DNA of 64,000 nt from Nitrospirota bacterium (GCA_021811105.1 JAJZPM010000005.1:38234-102233), one strand, 5' to 3'; positions 22,693-57,335 are shown, numbered from the stretch's first letter. Made by a program: numbers and translations. Notes: generated from the sequence alone by a model not told the origin.

Positions 22693-23001
22693 ATGAAGAT
22701 ATTCAGAAATCCTGATGCGAAGTGGCGGGAAGAGGACAAGTTCAGGGAAAAGGCATACGAAGGACTCGGCAAGGGACAGGACGTCTCCGGTATCGGGACC
22801 TCGATAATCCTTCATTCCGGCAAGATGCATTCTTTCAATCTTCTCGGCACCGAGATATGGAAATTGTGTGACGGCAGGACCGTGGAAGAAATCGTCTCGG
22901 AGTTGAAAGAAAAATTCGAGGTGGACGAAGAGACCTTGCGGAGCGATGTCGACGCTTTTTTGGAGCATCTGAAGGAGGAAGGACTTGTCCATGAAAAATA
23001 G
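22693..23001 (+). CDS. PqqD-like (RRE-type) peptide-chaperone family protein
   Basis: SFNLLGTEIWKLCDGRTVEEIVSELKEKFEVDEETLRSDVDAFLEHLKEEGLV is the classical PqqD pattern. Confidence 0.75.
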   Translation: MKIFRNPDAKWREEDKFREKAYEGLGKGQDVSGIGTSIILHSGKMHSFNLLGTEIWKLCDGRTVEEIVSELKEKFEVDEETLRSDVDAFLEHLKEEGLVHEK

Positions 23002-23998
23002 TTTGATTCCCGCCGCGCCACTTACCGTAAACTGGGCGGTCACGAACCGGTGTAATTTCAAGTGCGGTCACTGTTACAGCAGGGCCGATGTGAGCGAAGA
23101 ACTCGGCTTCGATATGGTCAGCGCAATAGTCGAAAAATTGGCCGCCGCGAAGGTCTTCTCGGTGAACTTCGGGGGGGGAGAGCCCCTTTTGAGAAGAGAC
23201 CTGACAGATATCGCGCGGTTCGCGGCGGACCGCGGCCTTGCGGTCTCGATGAACAGCAACGGGTTTCTGATCGACCGGGACATGGCCCGGCGACTCAAGG
23301 AGGCCGGGTTCGGCAAGGTGGGTATCAGCATCGACAGCCCTAAACCCGAAGTCCACGACCGGTTCAGGGGCATTCAGGGGAGCCATGGAAGGGCGCGGGC
23401 AGCCCTGGGTCACCTGAAAGACGCAGGTATCGAGACCTCGATTTCATCGGTGATCTGCAAGATCAATATCGACGATATCGAAGGGCTTGTCGGCATGGCG
23501 CGCGCGACGGGTGTGTCCAATATCAATTTTCATAATTTCAAGTGCTCGGGCCTTGGTTTTACCAACAAGGACGTTCTTGATCTCAGCCCTGAAGAGTGGA
23601 GGGACTTTTATATCAAGGCGATCGCGCTGAAGGACACGGTAAAGGGACTAAGCATATCCCTCGAAGACCCGATCATCGCCCTGCTCGGCCATAAGAGCAG
23701 CGACTCGCTCGTGAAGGGGAGCGTCTGCGGAAAACTCTCCCTGAATATAAAATCGAACGGGGATATCACGCCGTGCGGCTTTATTCCTATCGTGGTCGGC
23801 AACATCTGCAGAGACGATCTGATCGAGGTTTGGGACAACTCACCGGTCCTCGGCATGATGCGGAACAAGGTGCCGAAGGGGAAATGCCTGAGCTGCAAGA
23901 GCCATTCCGAATGTCTCGGTGGCTGTACCGCCAGGACCCTTGCCCTCACCGGCGACATGAACAACCCCGATCCCCATTGCTGGAGAAATGAATCTTAG
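22991..23998 (+). CDS. Radical SAM/SPASM-domain protein
   Basis: NWAVTNRCNFKCGHCY (CxxxCxxC). SPASM pattern CGKLSLNIKSNGDITPCG...GKCLSCKSHSECLGGCTARTL. It overlaps the PqqD-like gene. Confidence 0.85.
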   Translation: MKNSLIPAAPLTVNWAVTNRCNFKCGHCYSRADVSEELGFDMVSAIVEKLAAAKVFSVNFGGGEPLLRRDLTDIARFAADRGLAVSMNSNGFLIDRDMARRLKEAGFGKVGISIDSPKPEVHDRFRGIQGSHGRARAALGHLKDAGIETSISSVICKINIDDIEGLVGMARATGVSNINFHNFKCSGLGFTNKDVLDLSPEEWRDFYIKAIALKDTVKGLSISLEDPIIALLGHKSSDSLVKGSVCGKLSLNIKSNGDITPCGFIPIVVGNICRDDLIEVWDNSPVLGMMRNKVPKGKCLSCKSHSECLGGCTARTLALTGDMNNPDPHCWRNES

Positions 23999-41934: not shown

Positions 41935-42347
41935 TGGCGGAAGGCAAGGTTCTTCTTGAGATAGTTACCCCGCAGGGCCTTGTGTTCAGCGAGGAGGTCG
42001 ATGAAGTCACTGCTGCGGGCAGCGAGGGTGAGTTCGGGGTCCTTCCCGGCCATGTGCCGTTCGTGACCACGCTCAAGATCGGCATGCTCACATGCAAGAA
42101 GGGCAATGAATCAAAGTACTTCTTTGTGAACTGGGGCTATGCCGAGGTCGGCGCCGAGAAGGTGATGATACTCGCCGACAGCGCCGAGCGGTCGGAAGAC
42201 ATCGACCTCGACCGCGCTACGGCCGCGAAGAAGAGGGCTGAAGAGAGGCTGAAGCAGGCCGAGAACGTCGACTTCGCGAGGGCCGAATCAGCGCTCGAGC
42301 GCGCGGTAACGAGGTCCCAGGTCGTAGAGATCAGGAGAGTCAAGTAG
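41934..42347 (+). CDS. atpC: ATP synthase F1 subunit epsilon
   Basis: TAATG overlap with atp[34 protein letters not shown]. Confidence 0.95.
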
Positions 42348-42373
42348 GTACGAGAGAAAAGGCTGAAGCAATA

Positions 42374-42405
42374 AAAAGGGGTCGTGATGAACGACCCCTT
42401 TTTTA
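42374..42405 (+). terminator. Rho-independent terminator of the atp operon
   Basis: aaaaGGGGTCG-tgatgaa-CGACCCCtttttt. Confidence 0.8.
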
Positions 42406-42561
42406 TTTTAGGATGACATCGGCAATGAATTTCGCGGTTTTTTTCTGGACATCCGGTCTTTCATTAGAATATACTTGAAAAAAATAAAAGTACGATTACT
42501 GAAAAGACAGCGGACATTAACATACAGATTCTCAAAATAACTCTTGGGAGGATTCGAAAAT

Positions 42562-44448
42562 ATGTCTTTCAGTAGGGCCGGTCTGGTTCTGTTGCTTGTC
42601 CTCGTTCTCTCGTATCTCTCGTCTGCCGCCTTTGCAATGTCCGAGGAAGAGCGCAGTTTCCTTCTCATGTATTTCAAGGAAGAAGAGCTCCAGGTCGTCT
42701 CCGCCACCAGGAGCCTCAAGTCTATCACTCGCGTCGCAGAGAACGTCGAGGTTGTCACAAAAGACGACATCGAACTGATGAACGCCCATACAGTCGCCGA
42801 GGCCCTTTATTTCGTGACAGGCGTGGAGATTAGCGTGTTTGTCGGCCCTGGTGCGCAGGGAGAGATAGGCATACATGGCTCCGACTATACGAGGGTTGCT
42901 GTCCTGCTCGATGGCGTCCCGCTTCAGAATGAGAACAATGCGGTTGCCGCAGGCATCCTCCCTGTCCAGATGATAGAGAGGATAGAGATCATAAAGGGGC
43001 CTGCGTCATCCATCTGGGGCTCTTCCTTCGGAGGCGTAATAAACATCATCACGAAATCAGCTGGCGGGGGAGATCACATAAACGGGCTCGCCTATGCCTC
43101 GGGTGGGGAGCATGCAACGAGCGACGTCAGGGCTGAGCTTAACGGGAGGAAAGGGCCCATAGGCGTATATCTCTTCGGCGGCGCGATGAACTCCAGCGGC
43201 CTCATAGACAGCCACTTCTTTCATCACAATAATTTCTTTTCGAAGTTCACAGTCGATGCGGGTGAGAAAACGAAGATCGACCTCTCTTTTTTCTACCACA
43301 AGGACGACAGCGTTCAGTGGGATTATCTTTTCATTGACTATGACGCCTTCGACGCCTACAAACAGGAACAGGTTTATGGCAGGGCGTCGCTTCAGTCTGC
43401 ACTCAGCAATGACCTCGACCTTAACGTCTCGGGATGGATCTTCAACACCAATACGGATATTTATGAAAAGACGGTCAGCACAAACGAGCCGATTTTTGAT
43501 TCGGGCTCAAGCTTCGACAAGTATGGCTTCAGCGGTAGTCTCACGTGGAGGGCAGGGGCTCATACCATTGTCGCGGGCACTGATGTTCTGAATGGGAAGT
43601 CCAAGGCGAACATCTACCCAGGGGGAGACGTTGAACAGAGGAAATATGCGTTCTTCGCAAACGACACTATATCTCTTGGAAGTCTCACCATAACGCCCGG
43701 GCTGAGATATGACCACTCCAATCTGGGCGGCGATATCGTAAGCCCGAGTTTGGGTGTGACGTATCTTCTTTCGAAGGACCTTCTGCTCAGGGCGCTTGTG
43801 AGCAGGGGATTTCATGACCCAGGGATTACAAGCTTTTTTGATGACCCGTCTGTCGGATTTGTCGGAAATACCGGCATCAAGCCTGAGAAGATATGGTCTT
43901 ACCAGATCGGCGCGGAGGCTAATGTTGCCAATATCCTTAGCACAAAACTTACCTTATTCCTGCATGATATCGACGACATCATACTCGACAAGGACCTTGG
44001 CGATGGTTCTTTTACGAGTGAAAACGGCGGCAAGGAAAAGACGATAGGCGGGGAGATCGAGATAATCACGAAGAAATACCGGGGCTTTATTCTTAAGGCG
44101 GGAGCTCATTATGAGAGCGTCAAACTGGACAACTTCTCTGACATAAGGCTGTTCGATAACACAAAGAGATACGGATTCAATACGTCTCTATCCTATGATG
44201 AAGGGAAGGGTTTGAGGGCGGTGCTCAAGGGCCATTATCTATGGTGGAATGAGCCCTCGTTCTGGGATGCGAAGTATAACGGAGTTGTGATGGACTTCAA
44301 CGTCATCAAAGAAATCCTCACAAGGAACAATGCGACGCTCGAGGCGTTCTTTACGGGCCACAACATATTTAACGCGTCATCGTATGATAATAATTTCTTA
44401 ATGAACCCTAACCGTTGGATAGAGGCAGGCATCAGGTGCAAATTCTGA
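42562..44448 (+). CDS. TonB-dependent outer-membrane receptor
   Basis: GGGAGGA SD. Signal peptide MSFSRAGLVLLLVLVLSYLSSAAFA. Plug-domain motifs (VVSATRS...ENVEVVTKDDI, GPASSIWGSSFGGVINIITK). C-terminal ...IRCKF. Confidence 0.85.
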   Translation: MSFSRAGLVLLLVLVLSYLSSAAFAMSEEERSFLLMYFKEEELQVVSATRSLKSITRVAENVEVVTKDDIELMNAHTVAEALYFVTGVEISVFVGPGAQGEIGIHGSDYTRVAVLLDGVPLQNENNAVAAGILPVQMIERIEIIKGPASSIWGSSFGGVINIITKSAGGGDHINGLAYASGGEHATSDVRAELNGRKGPIGVYLFGGAMNSSGLIDSHFFHHNNFFSKFTVDAGEKTKIDLSFFYHKDDSVQWDYLFIDYDAFDAYKQEQVYGRASLQSALSNDLDLNVSGWIFNTNTDIYEKTVSTNEPIFDSGSSFDKYGFSGSLTWRAGAHTIVAGTDVLNGKSKANIYPGGDVEQRKYAFFANDTISLGSLTITPGLRYDHSNLGGDIVSPSLGVTYLLSKDLLLRALVSRGFHDPGITSFFDDPSVGFVGNTGIKPEKIWSYQIGAEANVANILSTKLTLFLHDIDDIILDKDLGDGSFTSENGGKEKTIGGEIEIITKKYRGFILKAGAHYESVKLDNFSDIRLFDNTKRYGFNTSLSYDEGKGLRAVLKGHYLWWNEPSFWDAKYNGVVMDFNVIKEILTRNNATLEAFFTGHNIFNASSYDNNFLMNPNRWIEAGIRCKF

Positions 44449-44505
44449 GAGGGAAGCGGCCCCTTTCAGGGGTTTAACATATTCCAAAATAAGGGAGGGC
44501 ATGAG

Positions 44506-44706
44506 ATGAAAAAGACCATCAGGAAGGCGGCTGCAAAGGCACCGGCGAAAAAGAAAACAGCTGCAAAAAAGAAAACGGCGAAGAAGCCAGCTGCCAAGAA
44601 GACTACGGCAAAGAAAACGACCGCAAAGAAGGTGGCCAAGCCTGCGGCCAGGAAGAAGACGGCGAAAGCGGTATGCTGCAGGGGCGGGGCAGTGTCCATA
44701 AGATAG
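44506..44706 (+). CDS. 66-aa polycationic (A/T)AKK-repeat protein with an AVCCRGGAVSIR tail (histone-H1-like, or a candidate RiPP precursor)
   Basis: AAGGGAGGG-N6-ATG. By my count 22 Lys and 4 Arg, with no Asp or Glu. The only two Cys residues are in the last 12 aa. Confidence 0.7.
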   Translation: MKKTIRKAAAKAPAKKKTAAKKKTAKKPAAKKTTAKKTTAKKVAKPAARKKTAKAVCCRGGAVSIR

Positions 44707-44725
44707 AAGGCGGTCTTTCGAATCA

Positions 44726-44751
44726 GGGAGGGCGAAGGCCCTCCTTTTTTT
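44726..44751 (+). terminator. Hairpin + T7 (GGAGGGC-gaag-GCCCTCC-ttttttt) between the small basic ORF and the rSAM gene
   Basis: Direct reading. The T-tract ends 3 nt before the ATG at 44755. Confidence 0.7.
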
Positions 44752-44754
44752 GTT

Positions 44755-46050
44755 ATGCAACTTTCAAGGTACTGTAAGGCATATCCCGACCCCGGAGACC
44801 CTCAGGGTCTGATCCTTTTCTCGACAAAAAACGCTGCCATTATCCGAATCCCGAAGTCCAGCCTCGGAAATATCTCGCGCCTCGAAGGGGACAGGAAGCT
44901 CCTGAAAAATTGGGGTTTCCTCATAGAAGATCCCGGAAAAGAGAAAATAGATATGCTCGGCTTTATCGACGAGCTAAACCGCTTGAACAGGACGCTGAGC
45001 ATCAAGCTTGTGATGTGCCTCGACTGCAACCTCGCCTGCAGGTACTGCTTCGAGGGGACGAGAAAGGGCAGACATTATATGACGAAGGAGACGGCCGACG
45101 ACTTCGTTGAGTTCGTGAGGAAGAGAATAGCCAGCCGTCCGAAGATCAAGGAACTCCAGGTCACCTTTTACGGCGGCGAACCGCTCATGAGCAAACAACT
45201 GATCCTCCGCATCTCCTCACGACTGAAGCGGCTGGCCCGGTCGCCCGGAATCCCTTTCAGCTTCTACCTGATCACCAACGGCACGCTCCTGACAAAAGAG
45301 ACGGTAAAGGAGATGAAACGCCTCGGACTGAAAGAGGCGTATGTCAGTATTGACGGGCCGCAGGACAACCATGACATTACCAGACCATATAAATCGGGCA
45401 GGGGCAGCTTCGGAAGAATAATATGCAATATCCATGACGTCTGCGGCATGATCGAGGTGCAGACAGGCGGCAATTTTACAAAGGAGAATTATAAAAGGTT
45501 TCCGGAACTCCTCGGTTATCTGACGGCCGAGGGGCTGCTGCCCTCGAAGGTGGCGGTGCGCGGGTTCTTTCCGGTCACGGCCGAAAGCGCCGACTTTGCG
45601 CTCCCTGATTTTCATGAGGGCATTGCTTCCATTGATGAGCCATGGCTCTTCGATGCAAGCGTCTATCTCAGGGAGGAGATACTGAAGAGGGGCTGCAGGC
45701 TGGAGCCGGTCGGTCCGGGGGTCTGCATGATGGAGCACAGGAACAATATCCTCGTGAACTATGACGGCAGCATCTGCAAATGTCCCGGTCTGATCGGAAG
45801 AAAGGAATATGTAATCGGGGACATATGGAGCGGGACCGGGGACTATCGCGCCTCCCACAACCTCGACAACTGGAAAAATGACGAATGTCTTGACTGCGCG
45901 TATCTTCCGCTCTGCTTCGGCGGGTGCAGGTATATGAAGCTGGTCCGCGACGGGAACATGGACGGGGTCGACTGCAGGAAGGCGTATTTCGATGCTACGC
46001 TCGAAGCGTTTGTGAATCAGGACATGAAGTATGGATTGGTGAGGAAATGA
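44755..46050 (+). CDS. Radical SAM/SPASM-domain protein with a ~90-aa N-terminal (RRE-like) extension; putative peptide maturase
   Basis: MCLDCNLACRYCFEG (CxxxCxxC) begins about 90 aa in. SPASM pattern GSICKCPG...ECLDCAYLPLCFGGCRYM. The N-terminal LILFSTKNAAIIRIPKSSL resembles peptide-binding extensions of sacti/ranthipeptide synthases. Confidence 0.8.
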   Translation: MQLSRYCKAYPDPGDPQGLILFSTKNAAIIRIPKSSLGNISRLEGDRKLLKNWGFLIEDPGKEKIDMLGFIDELNRLNRTLSIKLVMCLDCNLACRYCFEGTRKGRHYMTKETADDFVEFVRKRIASRPKIKELQVTFYGGEPLMSKQLILRISSRLKRLARSPGIPFSFYLITNGTLLTKETVKEMKRLGLKEAYVSIDGPQDNHDITRPYKSGRGSFGRIICNIHDVCGMIEVQTGGNFTKENYKRFPELLGYLTAEGLLPSKVAVRGFFPVTAESADFALPDFHEGIASIDEPWLFDASVYLREEILKRGCRLEPVGPGVCMMEHRNNILVNYDGSICKCPGLIGRKEYVIGDIWSGTGDYRASHNLDNWKNDECLDCAYLPLCFGGCRYMKLVRDGNMDGVDCRKAYFDATLEAFVNQDMKYGLVRK

Positions 46051-46188
46051 GTTGACCTACCCTTCCACCCCTCCCAAGAGGGGACCAACCCCAGACCTCC
46101 TTAATCAAGTAATTGGAAGTACCTCCTTATTGTGTTATTTGCTGTCTTCTGATATAGTTTCAAGTGAGAAAATATTCCGTGGGGACGG

Positions 46189-47094
46189 ATGCTTAACAAA
46201 AGAGATCCTATATCAGTAGTCTTGCTTTTCCTGCTTATCCTTGGGCTTCCAGTGTCCGCCGGGGCAGGGGAGATCGTCGCACTGAAAAGCGCCGACATTC
46301 AACCCTACAACGAGGCGGTTGAGGGATTTATGAAGTCCTGCAGGTGCGACGTCAGCGAGATCGTGCTCAACGAAACGGCCGGCCGGGACGTCCTCGAAAA
46401 AATCAGGGACGCGGACCCTGAGGCGGTCTTTGCGGTAGGGATGGACGCCCTGAATTTCTCGAAGACGATCGGAAATGTCCCGGTGGTATATTCGATGGTG
46501 CCCAACTCTCAGTTGTTGAGCGTGGCCCAACAGAACGCGTCCGGCGTGAGCATGTATATTTCCCCCGAAAAATTTATTGCCGCAATACTCGAGGTCTTTC
46601 CCCATGCAAAGAAGATCGGCCTGATATTCGACGCCAGACATTCCGGGTCGTTCGTGAGGGATGCCGATTCAGCCTGTCGCGCCAGGGGGATAGAGCTCGT
46701 CGCGGAAAAGACTTCGAGGCCGGGTGACATCCCCACGCTCATCGACAGCATGAGGGGCCGGATCGACGTATTCCTGATGGTCCCCGACGTAACGGTTATC
46801 AACCCGGAATCGGTAAAATATCTCCTTCTTTTTTCATTCAGGAACAAGGTGCCGGTCTTTACCTTCTCCAGAAAATATGTCGAGATGGGGTCCGCCGCCG
46901 GGCTTTACGCTGCGCCTTACGACATGGGGCTGCAGGCCGGAGAGATCGTCCAAAAAATCGTCTCCGAGAAAAACGGAAAGGTGATCAGGGCCGATGCCAG
47001 GAAGACTGTCCTGGTGATCAACAGAAAGATCATGAATAAACTTGGTATCAGGATCCGGGGCGAGGTCCTGGGCAGGGCGGAATATGCCGACTAA
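46189..47094 (+). CDS. Periplasmic ABC-type substrate-binding-like protein (COG2984/PF04392-like)
   Basis: Signal peptide. VFAVGMDALNFSKTIGNVPVVYSMV...KIGLIFD pattern. Its 3' end overlaps the kinase gene. Confidence 0.6.
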   Translation: MLNKRDPISVVLLFLLILGLPVSAGAGEIVALKSADIQPYNEAVEGFMKSCRCDVSEIVLNETAGRDVLEKIRDADPEAVFAVGMDALNFSKTIGNVPVVYSMVPNSQLLSVAQQNASGVSMYISPEKFIAAILEVFPHAKKIGLIFDARHSGSFVRDADSACRARGIELVAEKTSRPGDIPTLIDSMRGRIDVFLMVPDVTVINPESVKYLLLFSFRNKVPVFTFSRKYVEMGSAAGLYAAPYDMGLQAGEIVQKIVSEKNGKVIRADARKTVLVINRKIMNKLGIRIRGEVLGRAEYAD

Positions 47095-48658
47095 GAGTTT
47101 CAGAAAGAGTTTCGGGTTCAAGGTCTTCAGGTCCTTTGCGCTCTCGATCCTGGTCGTGGCGATCGTCCTTTCGGCGTTGCTCGTCTATTACCAAAACAGC
47201 ATGGTGAAAAAGGACCTCTATAAGGAGGGCACGATGCTCGCCGACATGCTTGCCTACAGCATCAGGACATGGGTCTTCGCCGAAAACAAGGACATGCTGA
47301 AGGACGCGGTGCAGGGGGTCATGGGCCAGAAAAATGTTGTGGCGGTAGTGGTATACAATGCCGATAGGCAGGTCCTGATCATCGAGAAGAAACAGTCTGC
47401 CGACAAGAAGGACCCCTTTGGAAATGATCCTGCGGCCGCGGGGAAAATGCGGATGGAACAGGCCGGCATTATTCCGAAGACAGCCGAAAGAGAAGGGACG
47501 ATAGGGTTCCTGTCGCCTGTCGTGCTCGAGACGTACAAGAACATGGAAGAGGCCATTTACTTCGAAGAGTCGCCCAAACAGAGCGTGCAGCACGTTATAG
47601 GATACGTGGAGGTTGTTCTCGACAAGGGGGTGCTCAGGACCGAGATGAGGTCGATCCTCATCCGGAACGCCGTGGCCACCCTGCTGTTCTTGCTCGCCGG
47701 CAGCGTCGCGATTTACATCGCGGTGAGGAGGCTGATGCGTCCGCTGACGAACCTTGCCGCTTCTGTGCGGTCCCTCGGCAGGGGAGAGACCGTTGCGCAG
47801 GTGCCGGTCGAGTCGATGGACGAGATAGGCAGGCTCGCTACGGATTTCAACACGATGTCCGACAACCTGAAAAAGAGGGAGGCGGAAAAGGAGTTGCTCG
47901 AGGAAAAACTCAGGTATGCCCAGAAAATGGAAGCGGTAGGCACACTGGCGCGAGGGATCGCTCACGACTTTAACAACATCCTTGCGACCCTGCGGGGCTC
48001 GATCTACCTCATCGACAAAAAATTGCCCGCTCATGACGAACTCCGCCAGTATACGCGGCAGGTCCACGGTTCCATCGCTAGGGCACAGAACCTCATACGG
48101 GGGCTCCTCACCTTCAGCAGGACGCAGCGCATCAATTTCCGGCCGGCGGACCTGGGCGGCATCATCAGGAGATTACAGCCGATGCTCACGAACATGGCCG
48201 GAGAGGGCGTGCATCTGAAGGTTTCGCTGCCGGAGGGGCCGGTCATGGCGATGAGCGACAGTGTTCAGCTGGAACAGATCCTCATGAACCTCTGCGCCAA
48301 CGGCCGCGACGCGATGCCCGACGGCGGAGTGCTGTCGATCTCGGTGGAGATGGTCACGGTCGGGTCTGAGGCCGGCAGGCAATACCCGCCGGCGCCCGGC
48401 AGGTACGCAGTGATGTCCGTGCGGGACACTGGCCCGGGTATGGACGAGAAGACGAGAGAGAGGATATTCGAGCCGTATTTCACGACAAAAGACGTGGGCA
48501 AGGGGACCGGTCTCGGCCTTGCAATCGTCTACGGCATCGTCAAACAGCATAGAGGTTGGATATGGGTGGAGTCCGAGAAAGGGGAGGGTACGATATTCAG
48601 GGTCTATCTTCCTTTGCTCGAAAAAAATGAGGAAGATATGGAAAATAAGAGTAGATAG
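47084..48658 (+). CDS. Sensor histidine kinase (2 TM, HAMP, HisKA, HATPase_c)
   Basis: HAMP region ([10 protein letters not shown]...[13 protein letters not shown]), H-box [10 protein letters not shown], and G-boxes DTGPGM and GTGLGLAIV. Confidence 0.9.
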
Positions 48659-48681: not shown

Positions 48682-50025
48682 ATGGATAAAGTGCTGCTGG
48701 TTGACGATGAGAAGGACCTGCGGGCGATCGTCAGACAGGTGTTGAAGGAAGAGGGTTTCTCGGTCATCGAGGCGGAGGACGGCCTGCAGGCGGTCAGGCT
48801 CTTCAGGAAAGAGCCCCCGGACGTGGTGCTGCTCGATCTGAATATGCCTCATATGGACGGCCTCGACGCGATGCGGGAACTCAGGAGGATGGGTCCCGGC
48901 GTCCCTATCATAATCCTCACCGCACATGGCGACATCCCTACTGCCGTCGATGCCATAAAAAACGGTGTCTATGACTTCATGGTGAAGCCTCCTGAATTCG
49001 ACAGGCTTGTCATCACGCTCCGCAGGGCGATCGAGACACGGCGGCTGGAAAAAGAAGTTGTGAAGGCCCAGACGGCCCTGAAGTCTTCCCTCGAGCACCA
49101 GCTCGGCAGGAGCGACGCCATGAAAACCGTGATAAAACAGGTCAACCAGGTGGCAGGGACCGAGTTCTCGGTCATTATCCAGGGCGAGACAGGGACCGGC
49201 AAGTCGGTGGTGGCGGCGGCTATTCATAGCCTCAGCGGGAGGTCGGAGAGGCCCTTCATGAGTGTGGACATAGGTCTGATCCCGGACCTTCTTGTGGAGA
49301 GCGAGCTGTTCGGGTACAAGAAAGGGGCCTTTACCGGCGCGGAGAAGGACAAGTCCGGGTATTTCGAGGCCGCGCATGGCGGTACACTCTTCCTCGATGA
49401 ACTCGAGAATATGTCGGCTCACGTCCAGGCGAAGCTCCTCAGCGTCATAGAGAAGAAGAAGATATATCCACTGGGAGGCACAGGCGAAGTGGATGTCGAC
49501 ATCCGGATCATCGCAGCGACCAACAGGGACATCAGGGAGGGCGTCGAAAAGAAAGAGTTCAGGGAAGACCTCTATTACCGCCTCGGGGAATTCATTGTGA
49601 GCCTGCCGCCGCTCAGAGAGAGGGTGGAAGATATCCCCTTTTTCGCCCAGAAGTTTCTTTTCGATGCGGCATCTGAACTGAACAAGCAGATCAAGGAGAT
49701 CTCCGGAGACGCCCTCGGTACTCTTATCAAACACCCATGGCCCGGAAACCTGCGGGAGCTTAAGAACATGATGAGGAGGGCCGCCTTGCACACGGAGGGA
49801 GACGTGATCGGCTGGTCCTGCATTGAGACGCTGATGAGCCAGAAGTCCAGGGACCGGTTTACGTATCCGGTCATGTCGGTCAAGGAGGCGGTAAAGGACC
49901 TCGAAAAAAGGATGATCGTAGAGGCGCTTGCGAGGACCGAAGGCAATAAAACCAGGGCAGCCGAGATGCTCGAACTCAGTTATGCCACGCTCTTCGCGAA
50001 GATAAAAGAATTCGGGATAAAATAG
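48682..50025 (+). CDS. Sigma54-dependent response regulator (NtrC family: REC + AAA+ + Fis HTH)
   Basis: DVVLLDLNMPHMDG, GETGTGKS, ESELFGYKKGAFTGA, and the C-terminal NKTRAAEMLELSYATLFAKIKEFGI. Confidence 0.95.
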   Translation: MDKVLLVDDEKDLRAIVRQVLKEEGFSVIEAEDGLQAVRLFRKEPPDVVLLDLNMPHMDGLDAMRELRRMGPGVPIIILTAHGDIPTAVDAIKNGVYDFMVKPPEFDRLVITLRRAIETRRLEKEVVKAQTALKSSLEHQLGRSDAMKTVIKQVNQVAGTEFSVIIQGETGTGKSVVAAAIHSLSGRSERPFMSVDIGLIPDLLVESELFGYKKGAFTGAEKDKSGYFEAAHGGTLFLDELENMSAHVQAKLLSVIEKKKIYPLGGTGEVDVDIRIIAATNRDIREGVEKKEFREDLYYRLGEFIVSLPPLRERVEDIPFFAQKFLFDAASELNKQIKEISGDALGTLIKHPWPGNLRELKNMMRRAALHTEGDVIGWSCIETLMSQKSRDRFTYPVMSVKEAVKDLEKRMIVEALARTEGNKTRAAEMLELSYATLFAKIKEFGIK

Positions 50026-50282: not shown

Positions 50283-50299
50283 TGGCCCGCTCTTTGCTA
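50283..50299 (+). promoter_or_regulatory. Near-consensus sigma54 (-24/-12) promoter TGGCCCGCTCTTTGCTA
   Basis: GG and GC are at the canonical spacing (TGGCac-N5-tTGCw). It lies 46 nt upstream of the ATG at 50345. Confidence 0.6.
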
Positions 50300-50344
50300 T
50301 TGCTTCCATAGCGGAAGATTCAAATACACCGGCACAGAGGGGAT

Positions 50345-50584
50345 ATGAAATACGGACCGGGCGGCTGTGACGGAGATTTGCTGCATCTTCTTTCCCCCAG
50401 GGAAAGAGAAGTGCTTGGATGGTTGAGGATGGGCAAGACCTCGTGGGACATATCGGTGATCCTTCGCATCAGCGAGAGGACGGTGAATTATCATGTCAAC
50501 AACATCATACGGAAGTTGGGCGTGGTGAACCGAATGCAGGCAGTATCCATGGCGGCGAACCTTGACACGGATGAAGGTACGTGA
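50345..50584 (+). CDS. Stand-alone LuxR/GerE-type HTH protein (79 aa, no sensor domain)
   Basis: LSPREREVLGWLRMGKTSWDISVILRISERTVNYHVNNIIRKLGVVNRMQAV. Confidence 0.8.
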   Translation: MKYGPGGCDGDLLHLLSPREREVLGWLRMGKTSWDISVILRISERTVNYHVNNIIRKLGVVNRMQAVSMAANLDTDEGT

Positions 50585-50650
50585 GGAAGTCCGGGGAAAC
50601 TCAGAGAATGCGGATCGGCCAACGGTTCCGAAAAGGAGGAAATTGACAGA

Positions 50651-51721
50651 ATGGCTGGGAGCGAGGTAATGAGCCGGGTGCAAGGCACGGAAAGGTCTGA
50701 CCGGGCGATCGGCACAAAGGTGATCGATCTGCATGTTCACGTGGTGGGTGTGGGCGAATCGGGAACAGGCTGCAGGGCATCGAGGGAATTCATCTACAGC
50801 CCGACCTTCGCAGCGATGCTCATCTCTCTCAAGACAGCGCCGTTTGAAGCCGGAGACCGAAAGATACGGCAGATACTTCTCGATAGCATCGATACTTCTG
50901 AAAATGTCGATTACGCCGTTCTGCTTGCGATGGACGGAGTATATAAAAACGGCAAGTTCGTAGAGGCTGAGTCGCATCTTGTCGTCCCGAATGACTATGT
51001 GATCGGTATGACCGGAGAGAACAGACGTGCCCTTTTCGGAGCTTCGGTCCACCCGTACCGGTTGGCGGACGAAATGATCGCCGAAACGAAGCGCTGCGTC
51101 GACGAAGGGGCGGTGCTGTTCAAGTGGTCGCCGTCGGGCCAGCAGATCAATCCCGAAGACGACCGGTGTATCCCCTTTTATATTTGCCTGGCCCGGGAGG
51201 GGATCCCACTTTTTTGCCATGCCGGGACGGAATTCACGATGCGCACATCAGACTTCAGAATCAGCGGGTACAATGACCCCAGAAAACTGATACGGGCACT
51301 CGACATCGGCGTCAAGGTGATCGTAGCGCATTGTGCTTCCCCCTCAGCCGGAAGCGTTGTGCCGTCCGACCGGGGATACTTCGAAGAGCTGATGCAGATG
51401 CTGAGAGATGCGGAGTCAAGGAGATGGGAGCTTTATGCCGACGTATCGGCCTGCTGTAGTCCGTCAAGAATAGGCTACCTTGAAAGGATCGTGCGGGAGA
51501 TCGAAGAAGGGAAGATAAGCCCGAAACGTTTTCTCTATGGAAGTGACTTCCCGATGCCTGCGGTGGACATCAACCTTTTTAGAAAGCCTCTGAGTTCCCA
51601 TGAACTCCTTGAACATATCAAGGGGCAGGGGAACCTGCTCGATAATCATTACCGGATACTGAAGCAATTCGGAATACATGAGTCGATCTTTACGAACGCC
51701 TGCGATGTGCTGAGGCTGTAA
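50651..51721 (+). CDS. Metal-dependent amidohydrolase-superfamily (TIM-barrel hydrolase) protein
   Basis: VIDLHVHVVG (HxH), ...FCHAG..., ...VIVAHCA... and a C-terminal YGSDFP pattern. Confidence 0.65.
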   Translation: MAGSEVMSRVQGTERSDRAIGTKVIDLHVHVVGVGESGTGCRASREFIYSPTFAAMLISLKTAPFEAGDRKIRQILLDSIDTSENVDYAVLLAMDGVYKNGKFVEAESHLVVPNDYVIGMTGENRRALFGASVHPYRLADEMIAETKRCVDEGAVLFKWSPSGQQINPEDDRCIPFYICLAREGIPLFCHAGTEFTMRTSDFRISGYNDPRKLIRALDIGVKVIVAHCASPSAGSVVPSDRGYFEELMQMLRDAESRRWELYADVSACCSPSRIGYLERIVREIEEGKISPKRFLYGSDFPMPAVDINLFRKPLSSHELLEHIKGQGNLLDNHYRILKQFGIHESIFTNACDVLRL

Positions 51722-53049: not shown

Positions 53050-54249
53050 TCATTCTTTGCGTGGCCTGACGCGCGTGCCGTCATTGATAGAGTCGTCGGG
53101 ATGCGCGATCACTTCCTCGCCTTCCGAGAGACCTGAAACAATCTCGGCAGCAAGCCCGGTTCTGTGCCCTACCTGAACAGGCCGCAGGCGCGCCTTCCCG
53201 TTATGCACTGCGAAGACTTCCCACTCGTCGCCTTTCCTGAAAAGGGAACTGGCAGGGACCTGCAATACGTCCTTCCCCTCCCATATCACGAAACGGGCCT
53301 CGACGCGATATCCATCGCCGAGTCGCTGCCAGCTTTCGGGCGGGGCAGTGATATCTGCGATGACGAGGGTCCGCTGTTCCTCGACGCCTAGACTCGAGAT
53401 CTTCGTGAAGCCCGCCGGCTCGACGACCCTCACCCGTCCCGAGAGGTTCGCATCGCCCCCCCAGCGTTCGAAGAGCACGGCCATGCCGGGTTTTATTTTG
53501 ACCGCGTCTTCAGAGAGGACCTCTACTTTCACCTCAAGTGCGGCTGGGTTGCCTATGTCGATCAGAGGGTCTCCGGAGTTTACCGTGCCCTCGCTCTCGT
53601 GATAGACCTTTAATACGTGGCCTGCCGCGGGAGCGCGCACGAATACGACTTTACCACGATTCACTGCCTGCTCTGCAGCGGAGTACCCGAGCGAGGTCCG
53701 TGCCTTGTCCAGGTCGAACTGCGCCGACCTGGCGGCCGAACGTGCAGCATGGAGGTCCGCATCCGTCCTTTTCGCCTGTGCCTCGGACTGGTCCATAGAA
53801 TCCTTCGAGATGTAACCGGACTTATAAAGTTTTGTCGCGCGTACGGCGTTTGCGTTCGCATATTCCGCATCCGCGGCCCGGGCCCGGACGGCCTCCTCGG
53901 CCGCTTTCAGCGTCGCCTCGGCAGCCGAGACCGCGGCCTCCGCAGCCGCCCGGCTCCGCGGATCTAGGACAGCTGACCTCTGGGACTCGAGCTCGGCCAG
54001 CACCTCTCCTTTTTTTACCGGATCGCCTACATCCAGTTCGACCCTTCTCAGGTAACCGGCGACAGGCGCGGAGATGACGTAGCGGTCTTTCACCCTGGTC
54101 TTCCCTTCTTCCTCTACCGTGACCATCATCCGGCCGCGCGTTGTCTTCGCGATGTCCACAGTCACCGGTTTCGGCAAGAAGCCGAAGACGATCGCGAATA
54201 TAACGAGCGCCGCGATACCGATGACAACGATCCATCTGTTCCTGCTCAT
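53050..54249 (-). CDS. HlyD/MacA-family periplasmic adaptor (membrane fusion protein)
   Basis: N-terminal TM segment, an Ala-rich coiled-coil hairpin, a beta-barrel C-terminus, and context with the ABC exporter. Confidence 0.9.
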   Translation of the reverse strand: MSRNRWIVVIGIAALVIFAIVFGFLPKPVTVDIAKTTRGRMMVTVEEEGKTRVKDRYVISAPVAGYLRRVELDVGDPVKKGEVLAELESQRSAVLDPRSRAAAEAAVSAAEATLKAAEEAVRARAADAEYANANAVRATKLYKSGYISKDSMDQSEAQAKRTDADLHAARSAARSAQFDLDKARTSLGYSAAEQAVNRGKVVFVRAPAAGHVLKVYHESEGTVNSGDPLIDIGNPAALEVKVEVLSEDAVKIKPGMAVLFERWGGDANLSGRVRVVEPAGFTKISSLGVEEQRTLVIADITAPPESWQRLGDGYRVEARFVIWEGKDVLQVPASSLFRKGDEWEVFAVHNGKARLRPVQVGHRTGLAAEIVSGLSEGEEVIAHPDDSINDGTRVRPRKE

Positions 54250-54255
54250 GATGGT

Positions 54256-56628
54256 CTACTCCCTTGCCTTAAGCACCGCCACGAGGTCGAGGTGGTCGAG
54301 CCGGTGGCGCACAATGAGCCCCGAGAGACAGGCGGAGACCACCACCACTGCGGCGGCAAGAGAATAGGTGACCTGTTCTACGACCGCCGGCACTCTGAAA
54401 AGGTCGGAGCTGATCGCCCCTGCGATGTAAGAAGCGATCCCCCGTCCTACGAGCATTCCAACAGGGATCGAGGCGATTGTCATCAGCCCGAGTTCCCCCA
54501 GGAAGATATACGAGATCTCTGCGCGCGTATAGCCGAGCACCCGCAGGCTTGCGAGTTCCCGGCTCCGCTCCGACAGCGCGATCCGCGCGCTGTTATAGAC
54601 GACGCCGAATGCGATTGTGCCTCCCAGAATCGTGGCGACAAAGGTGAAGAAGAGGAGCGCCTCGGCCTGGGTGTCGTAGAAATTCCTGATCTCTTCCTTT
54701 CTGATGACAGCACCTGCGACCCGCGGCATGTTGACAAGAGTGTTATATAGCCTTGCGCGATAGCGGGAATCCACGGCAAGATAGGCCCCGGAGATCGCAT
54801 CTCCTTCCTTCATGAGGCGGTTGAGGGCATGAATATCCATGTAGCCCTGCAGGCCTATATACTGTTTTACGAGCCCGGCCACCGGGACCTGTCGGACGGG
54901 CCTGTTCCCTTCGAGCACTTCGACGGTGAGCATGTTCCCGGGCTTAATGCCCAGAATTGCACCGAGATAGTCATTGAGCACGATGCCGTCCTGCGGAAGG
55001 CTGATCGGATGCAGGCTGCTGTCGAGGGGGGTGCTGAGGGAGTTCCCCGGCTCGATGCCCTGGATGGAGGTGCGATAACTGCGGTGCCCGAACCTTAGCC
55101 GTGCAGGCACGGACCTGAAGACCTCAGCCTGCGTCACCCCCTGCAGGCCCTTCAATTCACAGACCGCCTTTTTCGACGTGGGATCGGTAAACGTCACCGT
55201 AAGGTCCTCATTCTGCGAGCGTTTGAACTGCACATCCACCATAAAGTCGACTGCGTCTTTCGAAAAAGTCGCTGCAATCATGATAGCACAGGAAAGCGAG
55301 ATCCCGGCAATCGTCAGCAAAGACCTCAGGGGCCTTCTGCCGATGTTCCGCAGGATCATCCGTGTCGGCTGCGCCAGGAACCTGCCGATGCCGAGTTGCT
55401 CCACTGCGGACCGGCGGTATTGCGCGGGCGGCTCGGGCCGCATCGCCTCCGCCGGCGGGAGCGTTGCGGCCCTGTATACCGAAAATATCGTGCCTGCCAG
55501 GGTGGCGGAGGCGGTGATGAAGGCGGCGGAAAGAGCGACAGACGGCCTGAGTTCGAAGACGAGATACGGGAAACGGTAGAACTCCATGTATACGCCGCCG
55601 AGCCCCTCCCCGAGCCTGATGCCTGCGGCGAGTCCTCCTGCAATTCCGAGAAGCACGATGAGCAGCACCATCTTTGCATAATGGACCCCGATGGCGCGGT
55701 TTCCGTACCCGAAGGCCTTCAGGATCGCGATCTGGTCACGCTGGATGCCGACGGTCCTGCTGACAACGACGTTCAACAGAAACGCCGAGACAGCGATGAA
55801 GATCGTCGGGAATATCTCGGCGCTCCTCTGGAGCTGTTTGAACTCTTCGCTCAGGAAGCGGTGAGAGATCTGGTCCTTCCTGCCATAGGCACCGAGACCA
55901 CCGTAGCGGTCGAGGAGCGCGTCGAGCATGACGATCACGTCCTCCGCATTCGCGCCGCGCAAGAGGGTCAGCACCACGTCATTGAACGCCCCCTTCATGT
56001 TGTAGGCGGTACCGAGAGCGTCACGCCCCATCCAGAGGATCGCATAGCGTCTGTAATCCGGACTGATCGCACCGGGCCTGGACTGGAGCACGAACTCCGG
56101 TGACAAGGCCGTGCCTACGATGACGAGCGTCTTCCATTTGCCGTTGATGATCGCGCCGAAGGTGTCGCCGGGGGAGAGATGATGTGCTTCTGCGAATGCC
56201 TCGCTTACAAGCGCCTCGTTGTCTCTATAAGGCTCGACCATCCTGCCCTTTCTGATGTATGGTATGTTCAGCAGCGGGTCGCCGATGTCCGGCAGAGAGA
56301 CTATCCGGGCGGTCACCGGTTCCGGGAAGCCTCTGATGTCGAGCTTCACGTCGGCGGCAACGCGGGTCTCCACGGTTTCCACACCGGGTATTTCCGCGAT
56401 CCTCTCCTTAAGGCTGTCGGGCGCCCGTTTCAGCGAAGAGAATACCTCGGCAAAGCGATTGTCGCGGTAGAACCTGTCCCTTGTCACGTTCAGCGAGTCC
56501 ATCGTGCCTATCAGCATCACATAGGTCGCAACACCGCTTACGATGACAAGGACGATGGCAAGGGCCTGTCCCTTCATCTTCCAGAGGTCACGCAGGAGTT
56601 TGCGGTCGAGCATCGTGAACGACTTCAC
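54256..56628 (-). CDS. ABC exporter permease with two FtsX/MacB-type domains
   Basis: 790 aa with duplicated 4-TM FtsX modules and large periplasmic loops. [20 protein letters not shown]-terminus. Confidence 0.9.
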
Positions 56629-57335
56629 CAGTGGAGTTCTCCCGGTCTCTTTTTCACCGCGGTTGTGGTGATTTCCGATATCCGGCCGTCGCTCAGATGG
56701 ATTACACGGTCGGACATCCCGGCGATGTCGGCGTTATGGGTGATGATGACCGTGGTCGTACCTAGCTCACGGTTTGCCCTTTCAAGCGCCTCTAATACCT
56801 TGATCCCGGTCGAAGAATCAAGGGCGCCCGTGGGTTCATCACAGAGGAGGACGTCCGGGTTCTTCGAGACTGCCCGCGCGATCGCCACACGCTGCTGCTC
56901 CCCGCCCGACATCTGGGCTGGAAAGTGGTCGAGCCTCTCGCCGAGCCCGACGAGACCGAGGGCGTCTTCGGGCCTCATCGGCTTTTTTGCGATGTCCGTG
57001 ACGACTGCGACATTCTCGCGGGCGGTCAGGCTCGGAATAAGGTTATAGAACTGGAAGACGAAGCCGACGTGATACCGGCGGTATTCGGTAAGTTCGCGCT
57101 CATTCGCCGTGGTGAGGTCTTTTCCCCTATAGGTCACGACTCCCTCCGACGCGGTGTCCAGGCCGCCAAGTATATTGAGGAGCGTGGATTTTCCGCTGCC
57201 CGAAGGGCCGAGCAGAACGACGAGTTCTCCCGCAGAGAGTTCGAGATCAATGCCGCGGAGGGCGTGCACCTGTACCTCTCCCATGCGGTAGAGTTTTTTG
57301 AGGCCCTTTACTTTAAATACGACATCTTCAGATAT
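56625..57335 (-). CDS. ABC transporter ATP-binding protein (MacB/LolD-type); the start is probably a non-canonical ATA at 57335
   Basis: [26 protein letters not shown] and [11 protein letters not shown]. The first canonical start (ATG at 57284) would delete the conserved first beta-strand. See the finding at 57282-57346. Confidence 0.85.

Follow-up and report, generated by a model that had tools for sequence, protein, structure and literature searches.

A probable geopeptide-type RiPP operon with a polycationic precursor leader in a Nitrospirota bacterium

The geopeptide system, first described from Geobacter, was defined by comparative genomics and consists of a precursor model (TIGR04229; 22 positions, cutoff of 30 bits) and a model of a radical S-adenosylmethionine (radical SAM)/SPASM maturase (TIGR04280; 428 positions, cutoff of 400 bits). 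Its kind is already known, as curated genomic models only. Here we describe a locus at positions 44506 to 46050 of a 64,000-nucleotide stretch of DNA from a Nitrospirota bacterium (GCA_021811105.1, JAJZPM010000005.1:38234-102233; referred to as the window), where a small lysine-rich open reading frame (ORF) with a Cys-Cys tail precedes a radical SAM/SPASM gene. The two genes very probably form a precursor-maturase pair of the geopeptide family, separated by a conserved attenuating hairpin, and the whole is best explained, with good confidence, as an operon for a ribosomally synthesized and posttranslationally modified peptide (RiPP) of the geopeptide type. The initial annotation had not recognized the system, with its polycationic leader, from any described RiPP class; a place outside the described classes was abandoned, as the enzyme is a full-length, above-threshold member of TIGR04280 and is already so named publicly.

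The locus shares with the curated system a full-length maturase, a precursor encoded directly upstream with a CC pair ∼10 residues before its end, and a [VL]xKG motif, which is present in several peptides of the window's enzyme clade (clade A, below) and degenerate (VAKP) in the window peptide itself. It differs in that the window precursor has no TIGR04229 match and a longer leader of charge +24, and in the loss of the hydrophobic RIVV strand found at positions −18 to −15 in canonical peptides.

Further relatives are CteB/thermocellin, the PapB ranthipeptides, and the SCIFF maturase, which combine an N-terminal peptide-binding domain, predicted in the window enzyme as well, with the same CX3CX2C motif and seven-Cys SPASM region; in CteB-type systems, as in the window, a Cys-containing peptide substrate is encoded next to the enzyme. 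However, CteB is only ∼20% identical to the window enzyme, and the window enzyme scores far below the cutoffs of the PapB and SCIFF maturase models. In contrast to CteB-type systems, where the Cys residues are spaced and have defined acceptors and a protease and an ABC exporter are encoded nearby, the window has a substrate with one adjacent Cys pair and a locus that includes a receptor and a two-component system. SbtM (TIGR04082), a radical SAM/SPASM enzyme of Geobacter and Desulfobacteria that acts on Cys or Sec beside Gly in a small peptide (PMC9204691), provides an alternative chemistry model for a CCxG core, but TIGR04082 is outside the best 25 NCBIfam matches of the window enzyme, and SbtM has the substrate motif GGUG and another architecture.

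The precursor gene and its maturase

The precursor gene (44506-44706, + strand), recognized as an ORF, by synteny, and by a public gene call, encodes 66 residues with the translation MKKTIRKAAAKAPAKKKTAAKKKTAKKPAAKKTTAKKTTAKKVAKPAARKKTAKAVCCRGGAVSIR and is preceded at a distance of 6 nt from the ATG by the Shine-Dalgarno sequence AAGGGAGGG (44491-44499, +). GGAGG-type sites also lie 5′ of the precursor in relatives L083 to L086. The peptide contains 22 Lys, 4 Arg, and no Asp or Glu, and its sole Cys residues are residues 57 and 58; in all of these features the ORF is as initially annotated. It is composed of a conserved N terminus (residues 1 to 16, MKKTIRKAAAKAPAKK), variable AKK/TAKKT repeats (residues 17 to 41), a conserved pre-core (residues 42 to 56, KVAKPAARKKTAKAV), and a core (residues 57 to 66, CCRGGAVSIR). 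The core region (44674-44703, +), in which the Cys57-Cys58 codons (44674-44679) are followed by eight residues, is the presumed modification site; the CC pair is the sole invariant element of the upstream ORFs over 76 loci. Among 512 ORFs of at least 35 residues in the window, the precursor alone exceeds 22% Lys, and it alone of the three window ORFs of 35 to 100 residues with a CC tail adjoins a radical SAM gene. In the blocks conserved between the window and L083, 16 of 43 codons differ synonymously and 6 nonsynonymously; by this codon comparison, the precursor is under purifying selection.

A database search with the window peptide returned low-complexity noise only, and in an exact-sequence look-up in a collection of 15 billion proteins, the window peptide and three other polycationic precursors were absent. 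The public assembly gene table records a 66-residue gene at the precursor position and thus disagrees with the exact-sequence look-up for low-complexity peptides. Because the gene is called in the assembly, the idea that the precursor was an unannotated gene was dropped.

The maturase gene (44755-46050, +) starts 48 nt after the end of the precursor gene, has no Shine-Dalgarno sequence of its own, and encodes 431 residues. Its assignment as a geopeptide radical SAM/SPASM maturase is based on the family model, an identical named NCBI protein, invariant Cys residues, and an AlphaFold2 (AF2) model. The enzyme matched TIGR04280 ("geopeptide radical SAM maturase") with 528.9 bits (E value, 9.6e-159), its residues 1 to 426 aligning to profile positions 1 to 427 of 428, and the next-best NCBIfam family reached 165 bits. 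The runner-up families, several or most of which are Cys-directed peptide maturases, were TIGR04463, CefB, PapB, and, lower in the ranking, the SCIFF maturase, and the scores of all fell far short of the respective cutoffs. The identical protein, named geopeptide radical SAM maturase, is encoded on contig DAHVXV010000062.1 of the Nitrospiraceae metagenome-assembled genome (MAG) GCA_027331185.1, and more than 1,500 relatives were found at E values below 1e-30, mostly in Nitrospirota/Thermodesulfovibrionia MAGs and a few in genomes labeled Acidobacteriota.

The Pfam Radical_SAM model matched the enzyme (E value, 1.2e-16), and no match to the Pfam SPASM model was reported. As the initial annotation had it, a CX3CX2C motif occurs ∼90 residues in (residues 91 to 98; 45025-45048, +) and a SPASM region follows toward the C terminus (residues 324 to 407; 45724-45975, +). 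The Cys residues of the former (C91, C95, and C98) and the seven of the latter (C324, C343, C378, C381, C387, C391, and C407) are invariant in 80 homologues. In the AF2 model, which has a predicted local distance difference test (pLDDT) score of 91.6, the N-terminal domain (residues 1 to 85; 44755-45009, +) has strands at residues 7 to 12, 15 to 23, and 29 to 33 followed by several helices, an order like that of a RiPP recognition element (RRE). The best PDB match of the whole model by Foldseek was CteB, a sactipeptide/ranthipeptide synthase (TM score of 0.68 over 448 to 477 columns), which was also the best solved-structure match by sequence (E value, 1.8e-16). Judged from the modeled fold, the N-terminal domain is likely to be of the RRE type. 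Elsewhere in the window (22985-23998, +), a second, unrelated radical SAM/SPASM gene matches TIGR04303 ("GeoRSP system radical SAM/SPASM protein") with 545 bits (cutoff of 400), a match that assigns it to another computationally defined system.

Homologous loci were confirmed in species-representative genomes to a number of 349, of which the best 80 were used; upstream DNA was available for 79 of these, which form the denominator for precursor counts. Any small same-strand ORF with CC at 8 to 12 residues before the stop was counted as a precursor, with start codons assigned by a heuristic. Such an ORF was present 5′ of the enzyme gene in 76 of 79 loci and ended 43 to 135 nt before the enzyme start in 70 of them, while the rest of the upstream DNA (∼1.5 kb per locus) contained only ∼7 stray CC-tail ORFs. 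This synteny bears out the proposal of a RiPP-type precursor beside its maturase. The usual precursor of ∼31 residues reads M-K-K-R-I-V-V-L-[DK]-K-G-V-x-K-K, followed by 6 variable residues, CC, and 8 to 10 variable residues (in summary form, MKKRIVVLDKGVxKK-x6-CC-x9), and its Met-to-CC spacing is nearly constant at 21 ± 1 residues. A leader motif, [VL]-[SD]-K-G-[VT]-x-K-K, lies at −14 to −7 from the CC pair and, in a CC-anchored alignment without gaps, is in register in several clade A peptides (for example, KKVSKGTTKKK in L069 and TLSKGTTKK in L081); in the window peptide it is degenerate (VAKPAARK(K)). With a profile made from 57 canonical peptides, the window peptide scored 6.7 bits, a value reached by 2 of 300 shuffles, and five other clade members scored 16 to 23 bits (0 of 300 shuffles). 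Core sequences vary strongly between lineages, and Gly at CC+3 is the majority residue in the tail.

A lysine-rich ORF could also be a generic histone H1/Hc2-like nucleoid protein, or a noncoding low-complexity stretch, that lies beside an unrelated radical SAM gene, as the initial annotation had allowed. Hc2/H1-like proteins (PF07382, NF038052, and NF038053) do have the same AKK/KKT-rich, acid-free composition, and the low-complexity database matches together with weak compositional matches to HC2 and to the H1-like NCBIfam models are what this explanation predicts. However, the scores were 21.1 bits against 40 for PF07382, 17.8 against 135 for NF038052, and 17.4 against 80 for NF038053. Moreover, the ORF lies precisely where the related loci have their CC-tail precursors, its C-terminal 28 residues are in register with canonical precursors, synonymous changes exceed nonsynonymous ones, and the frame stays open through the variable repeats. 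Rather than a conserved DNA-binding protein, the Lys-rich segment represents an insertion into a RiPP leader that varies among family members. A mere H1-like neighbor is effectively excluded, and we give this explanation almost no weight.

Three loci (L012, L018, and L059) have the enzyme and no CC-tail ORF upstream under the criteria used; these may be decayed systems or may have other precursor forms. L012 is the sister of the pair L010/L011, whose leaders are polycationic. Several geopeptide cassettes with different cores occur in one MAG, GcC11-22 (L017, L041, L054, and L066), L044 and L050 lie ∼66 kb apart on one contig, and L078 has two tandem precursor genes (3700-4000) 5′ of one enzyme gene.

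The hairpin between precursor and maturase genes

Folding and conservation identified a terminator-like hairpin between the two genes (44725-44751, +; stem-loop, 44725-44746), in which the arms of AGGGAGGGC-GAAG-GCCCTCCTT are followed by T7. The stem starts 18 nt after the precursor stop and has 9 pairs, of which 6 are G-C; its energy is −22.1 kcal/mol (z = −2.3 against shuffles), and the maturase ATG (44755) lies 3 nt past the T tract. The stem, the T7 tract, and the 3-nt distance had been described initially, with a stem of 7 bp; the stem found here is slightly longer. The whole window contains two strict terminator-like hairpins, including this one, and no Rfam family for it was found in a scan of 42300-46300.

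Precursor-enzyme gaps of 69 related loci were examined for perfect stems with a minimum of 6 bp, including 4 or more G-C pairs. A stem was present in 66 of the 69, starting at a median of 15.5 nt after the stop, and a T run followed in 51 of the 69. All 66 stems have a G-rich 5′ arm, 64 with a GGGAG-like motif, and the consensus is GGGAGRGC...GCYCTCCC. These counts support the earlier suggestion of a leaky terminator between precursor and maturase genes, and we infer from the sequences that the hairpin acts as a leaky terminator or attenuator.

The 5′ arm resembles a Shine-Dalgarno sequence (GGGAGRGC), the 3′ arm resembles an anti-Shine-Dalgarno sequence (CTCCC), and the element is conserved in both sequence and structure. 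The strict orientation and the Shine-Dalgarno-like 5′ arm exceed the needs of a plain terminator. Since a terminator would not need a fixed arm orientation, the element could also take part in translational coupling or be bound by a protein or the ribosome. With regard to a general bias of terminators in this genome toward G-rich 5′ arms, the two strict terminators in the window are too few for a comparison.

The polycationic leader

The window leader comprises 56 residues with a charge of +24, compared with ∼21 residues and charges of −7 to +7 in canonical peptides. Tandem Repeats Finder detected in it an imperfect tandem DNA repeat (44550-44631, +) with a period of 15 or 30 nt and 5.5 or 2.7 copies, which encodes (A/T)AKK(T) pentapeptides. 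Leader charge in the family ranges from acidic (−3 to −7, in Geobacteraceae and Desulfobacterium-like loci) through mildly basic to strongly polycationic, the polycationic leaders having 25 to 78 residues and net charges of +8 to +33. Such leaders were found in only three separate enzyme clades, namely, clade A (the window, L001 to L005, L007 to L009, and L069), clade B (L028, L032, L034, L039, L043, and L056), and clade C (L010 and L011). In a neighbor-joining tree of the enzymes, bootstrap values for clades A, B, and C were 93, 77, and 100, respectively, and no union of them was ever monophyletic. The initial annotation had called for a survey of homologues for an upstream KK-repeat ORF with a CC tail. 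The enzyme is syntenic with CC-tail peptides in 76 of 79 loci, but the KK repeat is no hallmark of the family: polycationic leaders are restricted to three clades, and most leaders have 21 residues.

The repeats do not have the same place in all clades. In clade A they are N-terminal of the retained leader motif, and in the window's clade the N terminus and the pre-core motif are kept around a (TAKKT)n repeat of variable length; in clade B the N terminus MAKRI.VKKKG is retained, with an insertion of (KKKAT)n between this segment and the core. Close relatives, whose enzymes are 58 to 83% identical to the window's, have peptides of 66, 70, 74, 88, 89, 90, and 90 residues that share MKKTIRKAAAK, mostly continuing APAKK. 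The number of TAKKT-type units differs among them, and the reading frame is open through repeats of differing length in all. The pre-core KKV[AS]KPAAKKKTAK is present in the closest four relatives, and a CC[RK]GG-type core is common to the window and to three of them; the cores of other relatives differ. The polycation is best explained as a lineage-specific expansion of an ordinarily Lys-rich 21-residue leader via in-frame duplication of 15-nt units, an account that as a whole we consider probable. We know of no described RiPP class with a leader series that spans acidic to extremely basic, and a literature search found no paper on a RiPP leader of the polycationic repeat kind.

The polycation might instead be part of the working molecule, a long Lys-rich chain with a C-terminal cap modified by the radical SAM enzyme; this chain would exert its effect through its charge, with membranes, nucleic acids, polyphosphate, or mineral surfaces as conceivable targets. 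The recurrence of polycationic leaders in three separate, bootstrap-supported enzyme clades agrees with such a function, and the placement of the repeats at two different places in the peptide (clades A and B) suggests selection for charge more than drift. Copy number changes while the composition of the repeats is kept, and the cassette has no leader protease that would remove the segment. However, most family members have the 21-residue leader without this segment, which is therefore not essential to family function, and copy number differs by more than 20 residues among close relatives, a degree of variation that suits a tolerant spacer better than a precise effector. In addition, the TonB-dependent receptor and the periplasmic substrate-binding protein (SBP) encoded in the cassette (see below) show no difference in net charge between polycationic and canonical loci and so are not adapted to a ligand of +24 to +33; this favors a polycation that is removed or never presented to them. 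We consider a working polycation unlikely and lean toward a removable leader extension that is not part of the product.

The charge of the enzymes was compared with that of the leaders. N-terminal domains of enzymes with mildly basic leaders are acidic (−3 to −12), and those in most of the window's polycationic clade are basic (+1 to +11), with L005 as an exception at −12. Charge complementarity between the leader and this domain was rejected, as no monotonic relation was found (rho = −0.01). The remainder of the enzyme (residues 86 to 431) becomes more basic as leader charge rises (rho = 0.52), a relation confounded by phylogeny.

The receptor and sensor cassette and the predicted product

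The cassette begins with a TonB-dependent outer-membrane receptor of 628 residues (42562-44448, +; Pfam Plug and TonB_dep_Rec_b-barrel), which has a signal peptide, a plug, and a β-barrel and lacks an STN signaling domain; no NCBIfam receptor model reaches its cutoff on this protein. A candidate σ70-like promoter located 5′ of the gene by a consensus scan (TGGACA-18-TATACT; 42446-42475, +) comes just after the atpC terminator (42373-42403). Downstream of the maturase are genes for an SBP (PF04392; 46189-47094, +), assigned by Pfam and a signal peptide, with no ABC permease or ATPase gene adjoining it; for a sensor histidine kinase (47084-48658, +) with two transmembrane segments, a periplasmic sCache_4 domain, and HAMP, HisKA, and HATPase domains; and for a σ54-dependent response regulator (48682-50025, +) with receiver, AAA+, and Fis-type helix-turn-helix (HTH) domains, the last two genes being assigned by domain matches. 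Sub-threshold Rfam matches at 42366-42495 (− strand), to sraA (30.7 bits; gathering threshold of 56) and BASRCI414, overlap the bidirectional atpC terminator and most likely merely reflect the atpC hairpin.

When proteins encoded within ±4 kb of the enzyme gene were clustered, 74 of 80 loci had a receptor homologue upstream in the same orientation, with a gap of ∼50 nt between receptor and precursor genes in most. An SBP homologue lay within the 4-kb flank in 58 of the 80, in some downstream on the same strand and in others divergently oriented 5′ of the receptor gene, and a histidine kinase was found in 41, a count limited by flank length. The σ54 regulator is kept in close relatives L083 to L088, and L081 and L089 have a hybrid kinase instead. 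Pairwise identities of the radical SAM enzyme, the receptor, and the SBP correlate (rho = 0.44 and 0.54). The receptor and the SBP and kinase genes are thus conserved parts of the cassette, in agreement with the initial remark that the flanks would suit an exported or reimported product. Two layouts were distinguished. The Nitrospirota layout, which includes all polycationic clades, has the order receptor, peptide, radical SAM enzyme, SBP, and kinase; in the second, found in clades that include Geobacteraceae and Desulfobacterium-like loci, the SBP gene is divergent upstream of receptor, peptide, and radical SAM genes. The second layout (L038, L040 to L042, L048, L050, L052, L054, L057, L059, L062, L064, L066, L068, and L075 to L079) accompanies acidic or near-neutral leaders and CCxGAFxPxR-type cores.

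Beyond the regulator gene, a σ54 −24/−12-like site, TGGCCCGCTCTTTGCT (50283-50298, +), was found by sequence match and is a candidate output promoter of the regulator; it is the window's only single-mismatch σ54 match, and the window-wide count of such matches is not above chance. Equivalent sites, TGGCATCCCCTTTGC[TA], lie at the same place in L087 and L088. The site is followed by a gene for a stand-alone GerE/LuxR-type HTH protein of 79 residues (50345-50584, +; PF00196, E value of 1.9e-22), which is kept in L088, is truncated in L087, and probably belongs to an extended cassette in the window's lineage. Next is a gene for an Amidohydrolase_2 protein (PF04909; 50669-51721, +), assigned by Pfam and without an NCBIfam match, whose membership in the cassette is uncertain; it also follows the GerE gene in L088. 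The order of σ54-like site, GerE gene, and amidohydrolase gene that follows the regulator gene in the window (50283-51721) is repeated in L088 (15490-16899), while in L087 (15420-15750) the GerE and amidohydrolase genes are decayed and the σ54-like site is kept. The site and these two genes may be the output module of the two-component system.

A σ54 promoter for the window's receptor-precursor operon was considered and rejected; the σ70-like site is present there instead. Among 56 loci, 4 have a σ54 site before this operon, which is near background. Good σ54 sites do occur ∼96 nt 5′ of the precursor gene in L006, L015, L076, L078, and L079, where a long receptor-precursor gap gives the precursor its own promoter region.

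Two described systems resemble the cassette in arrangement. Methanobactin operons encode a RiPP that is matured by MbnBC and has its own TonB-dependent transporter, MbnT, as well as the periplasmic binding protein MbnE. A precursor and maturase encoded with a TonB-dependent receptor and a periplasmic binding protein are found in the window as well and, by analogy, would imply uptake of the product. The window differs from methanobactin-type operons in its radical SAM/SPASM chemistry, as opposed to MbnBC, and in its SBP, which is of the PF04392 type, is paired with a histidine kinase, and has no permease or ATPase gene nearby, an arrangement that suggests sensing rather than transport into the cytoplasm. 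The LuxP-LuxQ-LuxO system carries out periplasmic autoinducer sensing and has the same succession of periplasmic SBP, membrane histidine kinase, and σ54 response regulator, the window regulator scoring 345 bits with the LuxO model (below its cutoff of 800); the LuxR-family HTH gene downstream of the σ54 site in the window is a further likeness. There is, however, no homology past the shared domain families, and the signal in the window would presumably be a peptide that needs a TonB-dependent receptor. No Qrr-type small RNA was found by the Rfam scan of 42300-46300.

In the mechanism that we propose, the 66-residue ORF would be the ribosomal precursor, and the 431-residue enzyme would bind its leader via the N-terminal RRE-like domain. 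Using the 5′-deoxyadenosyl radical and two auxiliary Fe-S clusters, the enzyme would modify the invariant Cys-Cys core, with one or two thioether cross-links into the eight-residue tail, as in CteB, PapB, and the SCIFF maturase, as the most likely product; by analogy with these enzymes, we give thioether chemistry on the CC core about an even chance. The GC hairpin and T tract would end most transcripts after the precursor gene, and the maturase and sensor genes would depend on read-through, so that receptor and precursor would be made in excess over the enzyme and sensor genes. The leader would be removed, and the mature peptide would leave the cell, reenter the periplasm through the receptor, and be sensed there by the SBP and kinase. 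The conserved receptor, SBP, and Cache/HAMP kinase, along with lineage regulators, suggest export, reimport, and sensing; we put this extracellular fate forward tentatively, at somewhat less than even probability.

On the model of PqqA/PqqE or mycofactocin, the modified peptide might, on the other hand, remain intracellular, where it would give rise to a cofactor or handle metals, with the receptor and SBP-kinase importing and sensing another ligand, such as a metal complex. Consistent with this, the precursor has no signal peptide, the cassette has no exporter or protease, and two adjacent Cys could form a thiol-based metal site; the nearest NCBIfam models of the receptor are heme, B12, and siderophore receptors, all below cutoffs, and the family tables list maturases of PQQ and mycofactocin among weaker SPASM relatives, as seen for the window's second radical SAM enzyme. 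Nevertheless, cotranscription of receptor and precursor genes, which are set apart from the enzyme gene by the terminator, is the pattern of an abundant ligand/receptor pair, the best relatives of the enzyme are peptide cross-linking maturases rather than cofactor synthases, and the highly variable cores are typical of signals or antimicrobials and unlike cofactor precursors. An intracellular role thus appears improbable.

Several points weigh against the reading of the locus as a geopeptide operon with an RRE-bound leader, a cross-linked core, and a sensed product. TIGR04229 did not match the window peptide even at E values up to 10; the model also failed on six of seven other family precursors and gave one Geobacteraceae peptide 14 bits, and it is narrow. 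The isolated N-terminal domain of the enzyme gave only weak best matches, to the RRE protein TbiB1 with leader (E value of 0.028; TM score of 0.34), and none of four enzyme N-terminal domains had a PqqD or other Pfam match. The RRE type assigned initially has support from fold only, with the full-length model aligning to CteB and the isolated domain matching weakly. This domain is basic (+4) in the window's clade and acidic in most enzymes with mildly basic leaders, so that simple charge complementarity does not account for binding of the +24 leader. Apart from the frequent Gly at CC+3, the tail has no conserved acceptor residue, and the cross-link partner accordingly cannot be named; another Cys chemistry, e.g., SbtM-type thio-oxazole formation, is possible. 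No conserved protease or exporter was found in the neighborhoods of relatives, which leaves leader removal and secretion unsupported. A MacAB-like tripartite exporter is encoded 7 kb downstream of the cassette (53050-57284, −; HlyD, 53050-54249; FtsX permease, 54256-56628; ABC ATPase, 56625-57284), but it was rejected as the missing exporter, being absent from the same place in L087 and L088 and thus probably unrelated to the cassette. No σ54 site precedes the receptor-precursor operon of the window, and autoregulation is not evident there. The loci compared, the best 80 of 349, are mostly MAG contigs. Finally, a literature search over 8 million full texts on geopeptide, TIGR04280, and TIGR04229 found no relevant paper, and a search on lysine-rich leaders and on SPASM with Geobacter found nothing on the geopeptide family.

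Within the geopeptide reading, a bolder and rather doubtful proposal is that the cassette is a self-contained peptide signaling loop of diderm anaerobes, or possibly a metallophore-sensing loop. A CC peptide cross-linked by the radical SAM enzyme would be exported, reimported via the TonB receptor, and read by the SBP, the Cache kinase, and the σ54 and then the LuxR-type regulator, and the leader would have been expanded independently in three lineages for a charge-dependent role, such as export, polyanion retention, or presentation to a basic maturase.

The geopeptide system is one of many radical SAM/SPASM peptide systems that exist only as database models. As far as was found, its repeat-expanding polycationic leader, the recurrence of that leader in three clades, the leader motif at a fixed distance, the sequence-constrained hairpin, and the receptor/SBP/kinase cassette are undescribed. 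Annotation could be improved, since most precursors of the family escape the curated model. The fixed leader motif at a constant distance from the invariant Cys-Cys pair guides mutagenesis, and the leader series from −7 to +33 with changing repeat number provides a natural experiment on the tolerance or use of leader length and charge by an RRE-type maturase. The conserved cassette predicts an extracellular, sensed product and offers genetic read-outs in tractable Geobacter species. If the signaling reading is true, Gram-negative anaerobes would have a form of peptide communication that depends on TonB-mediated import.

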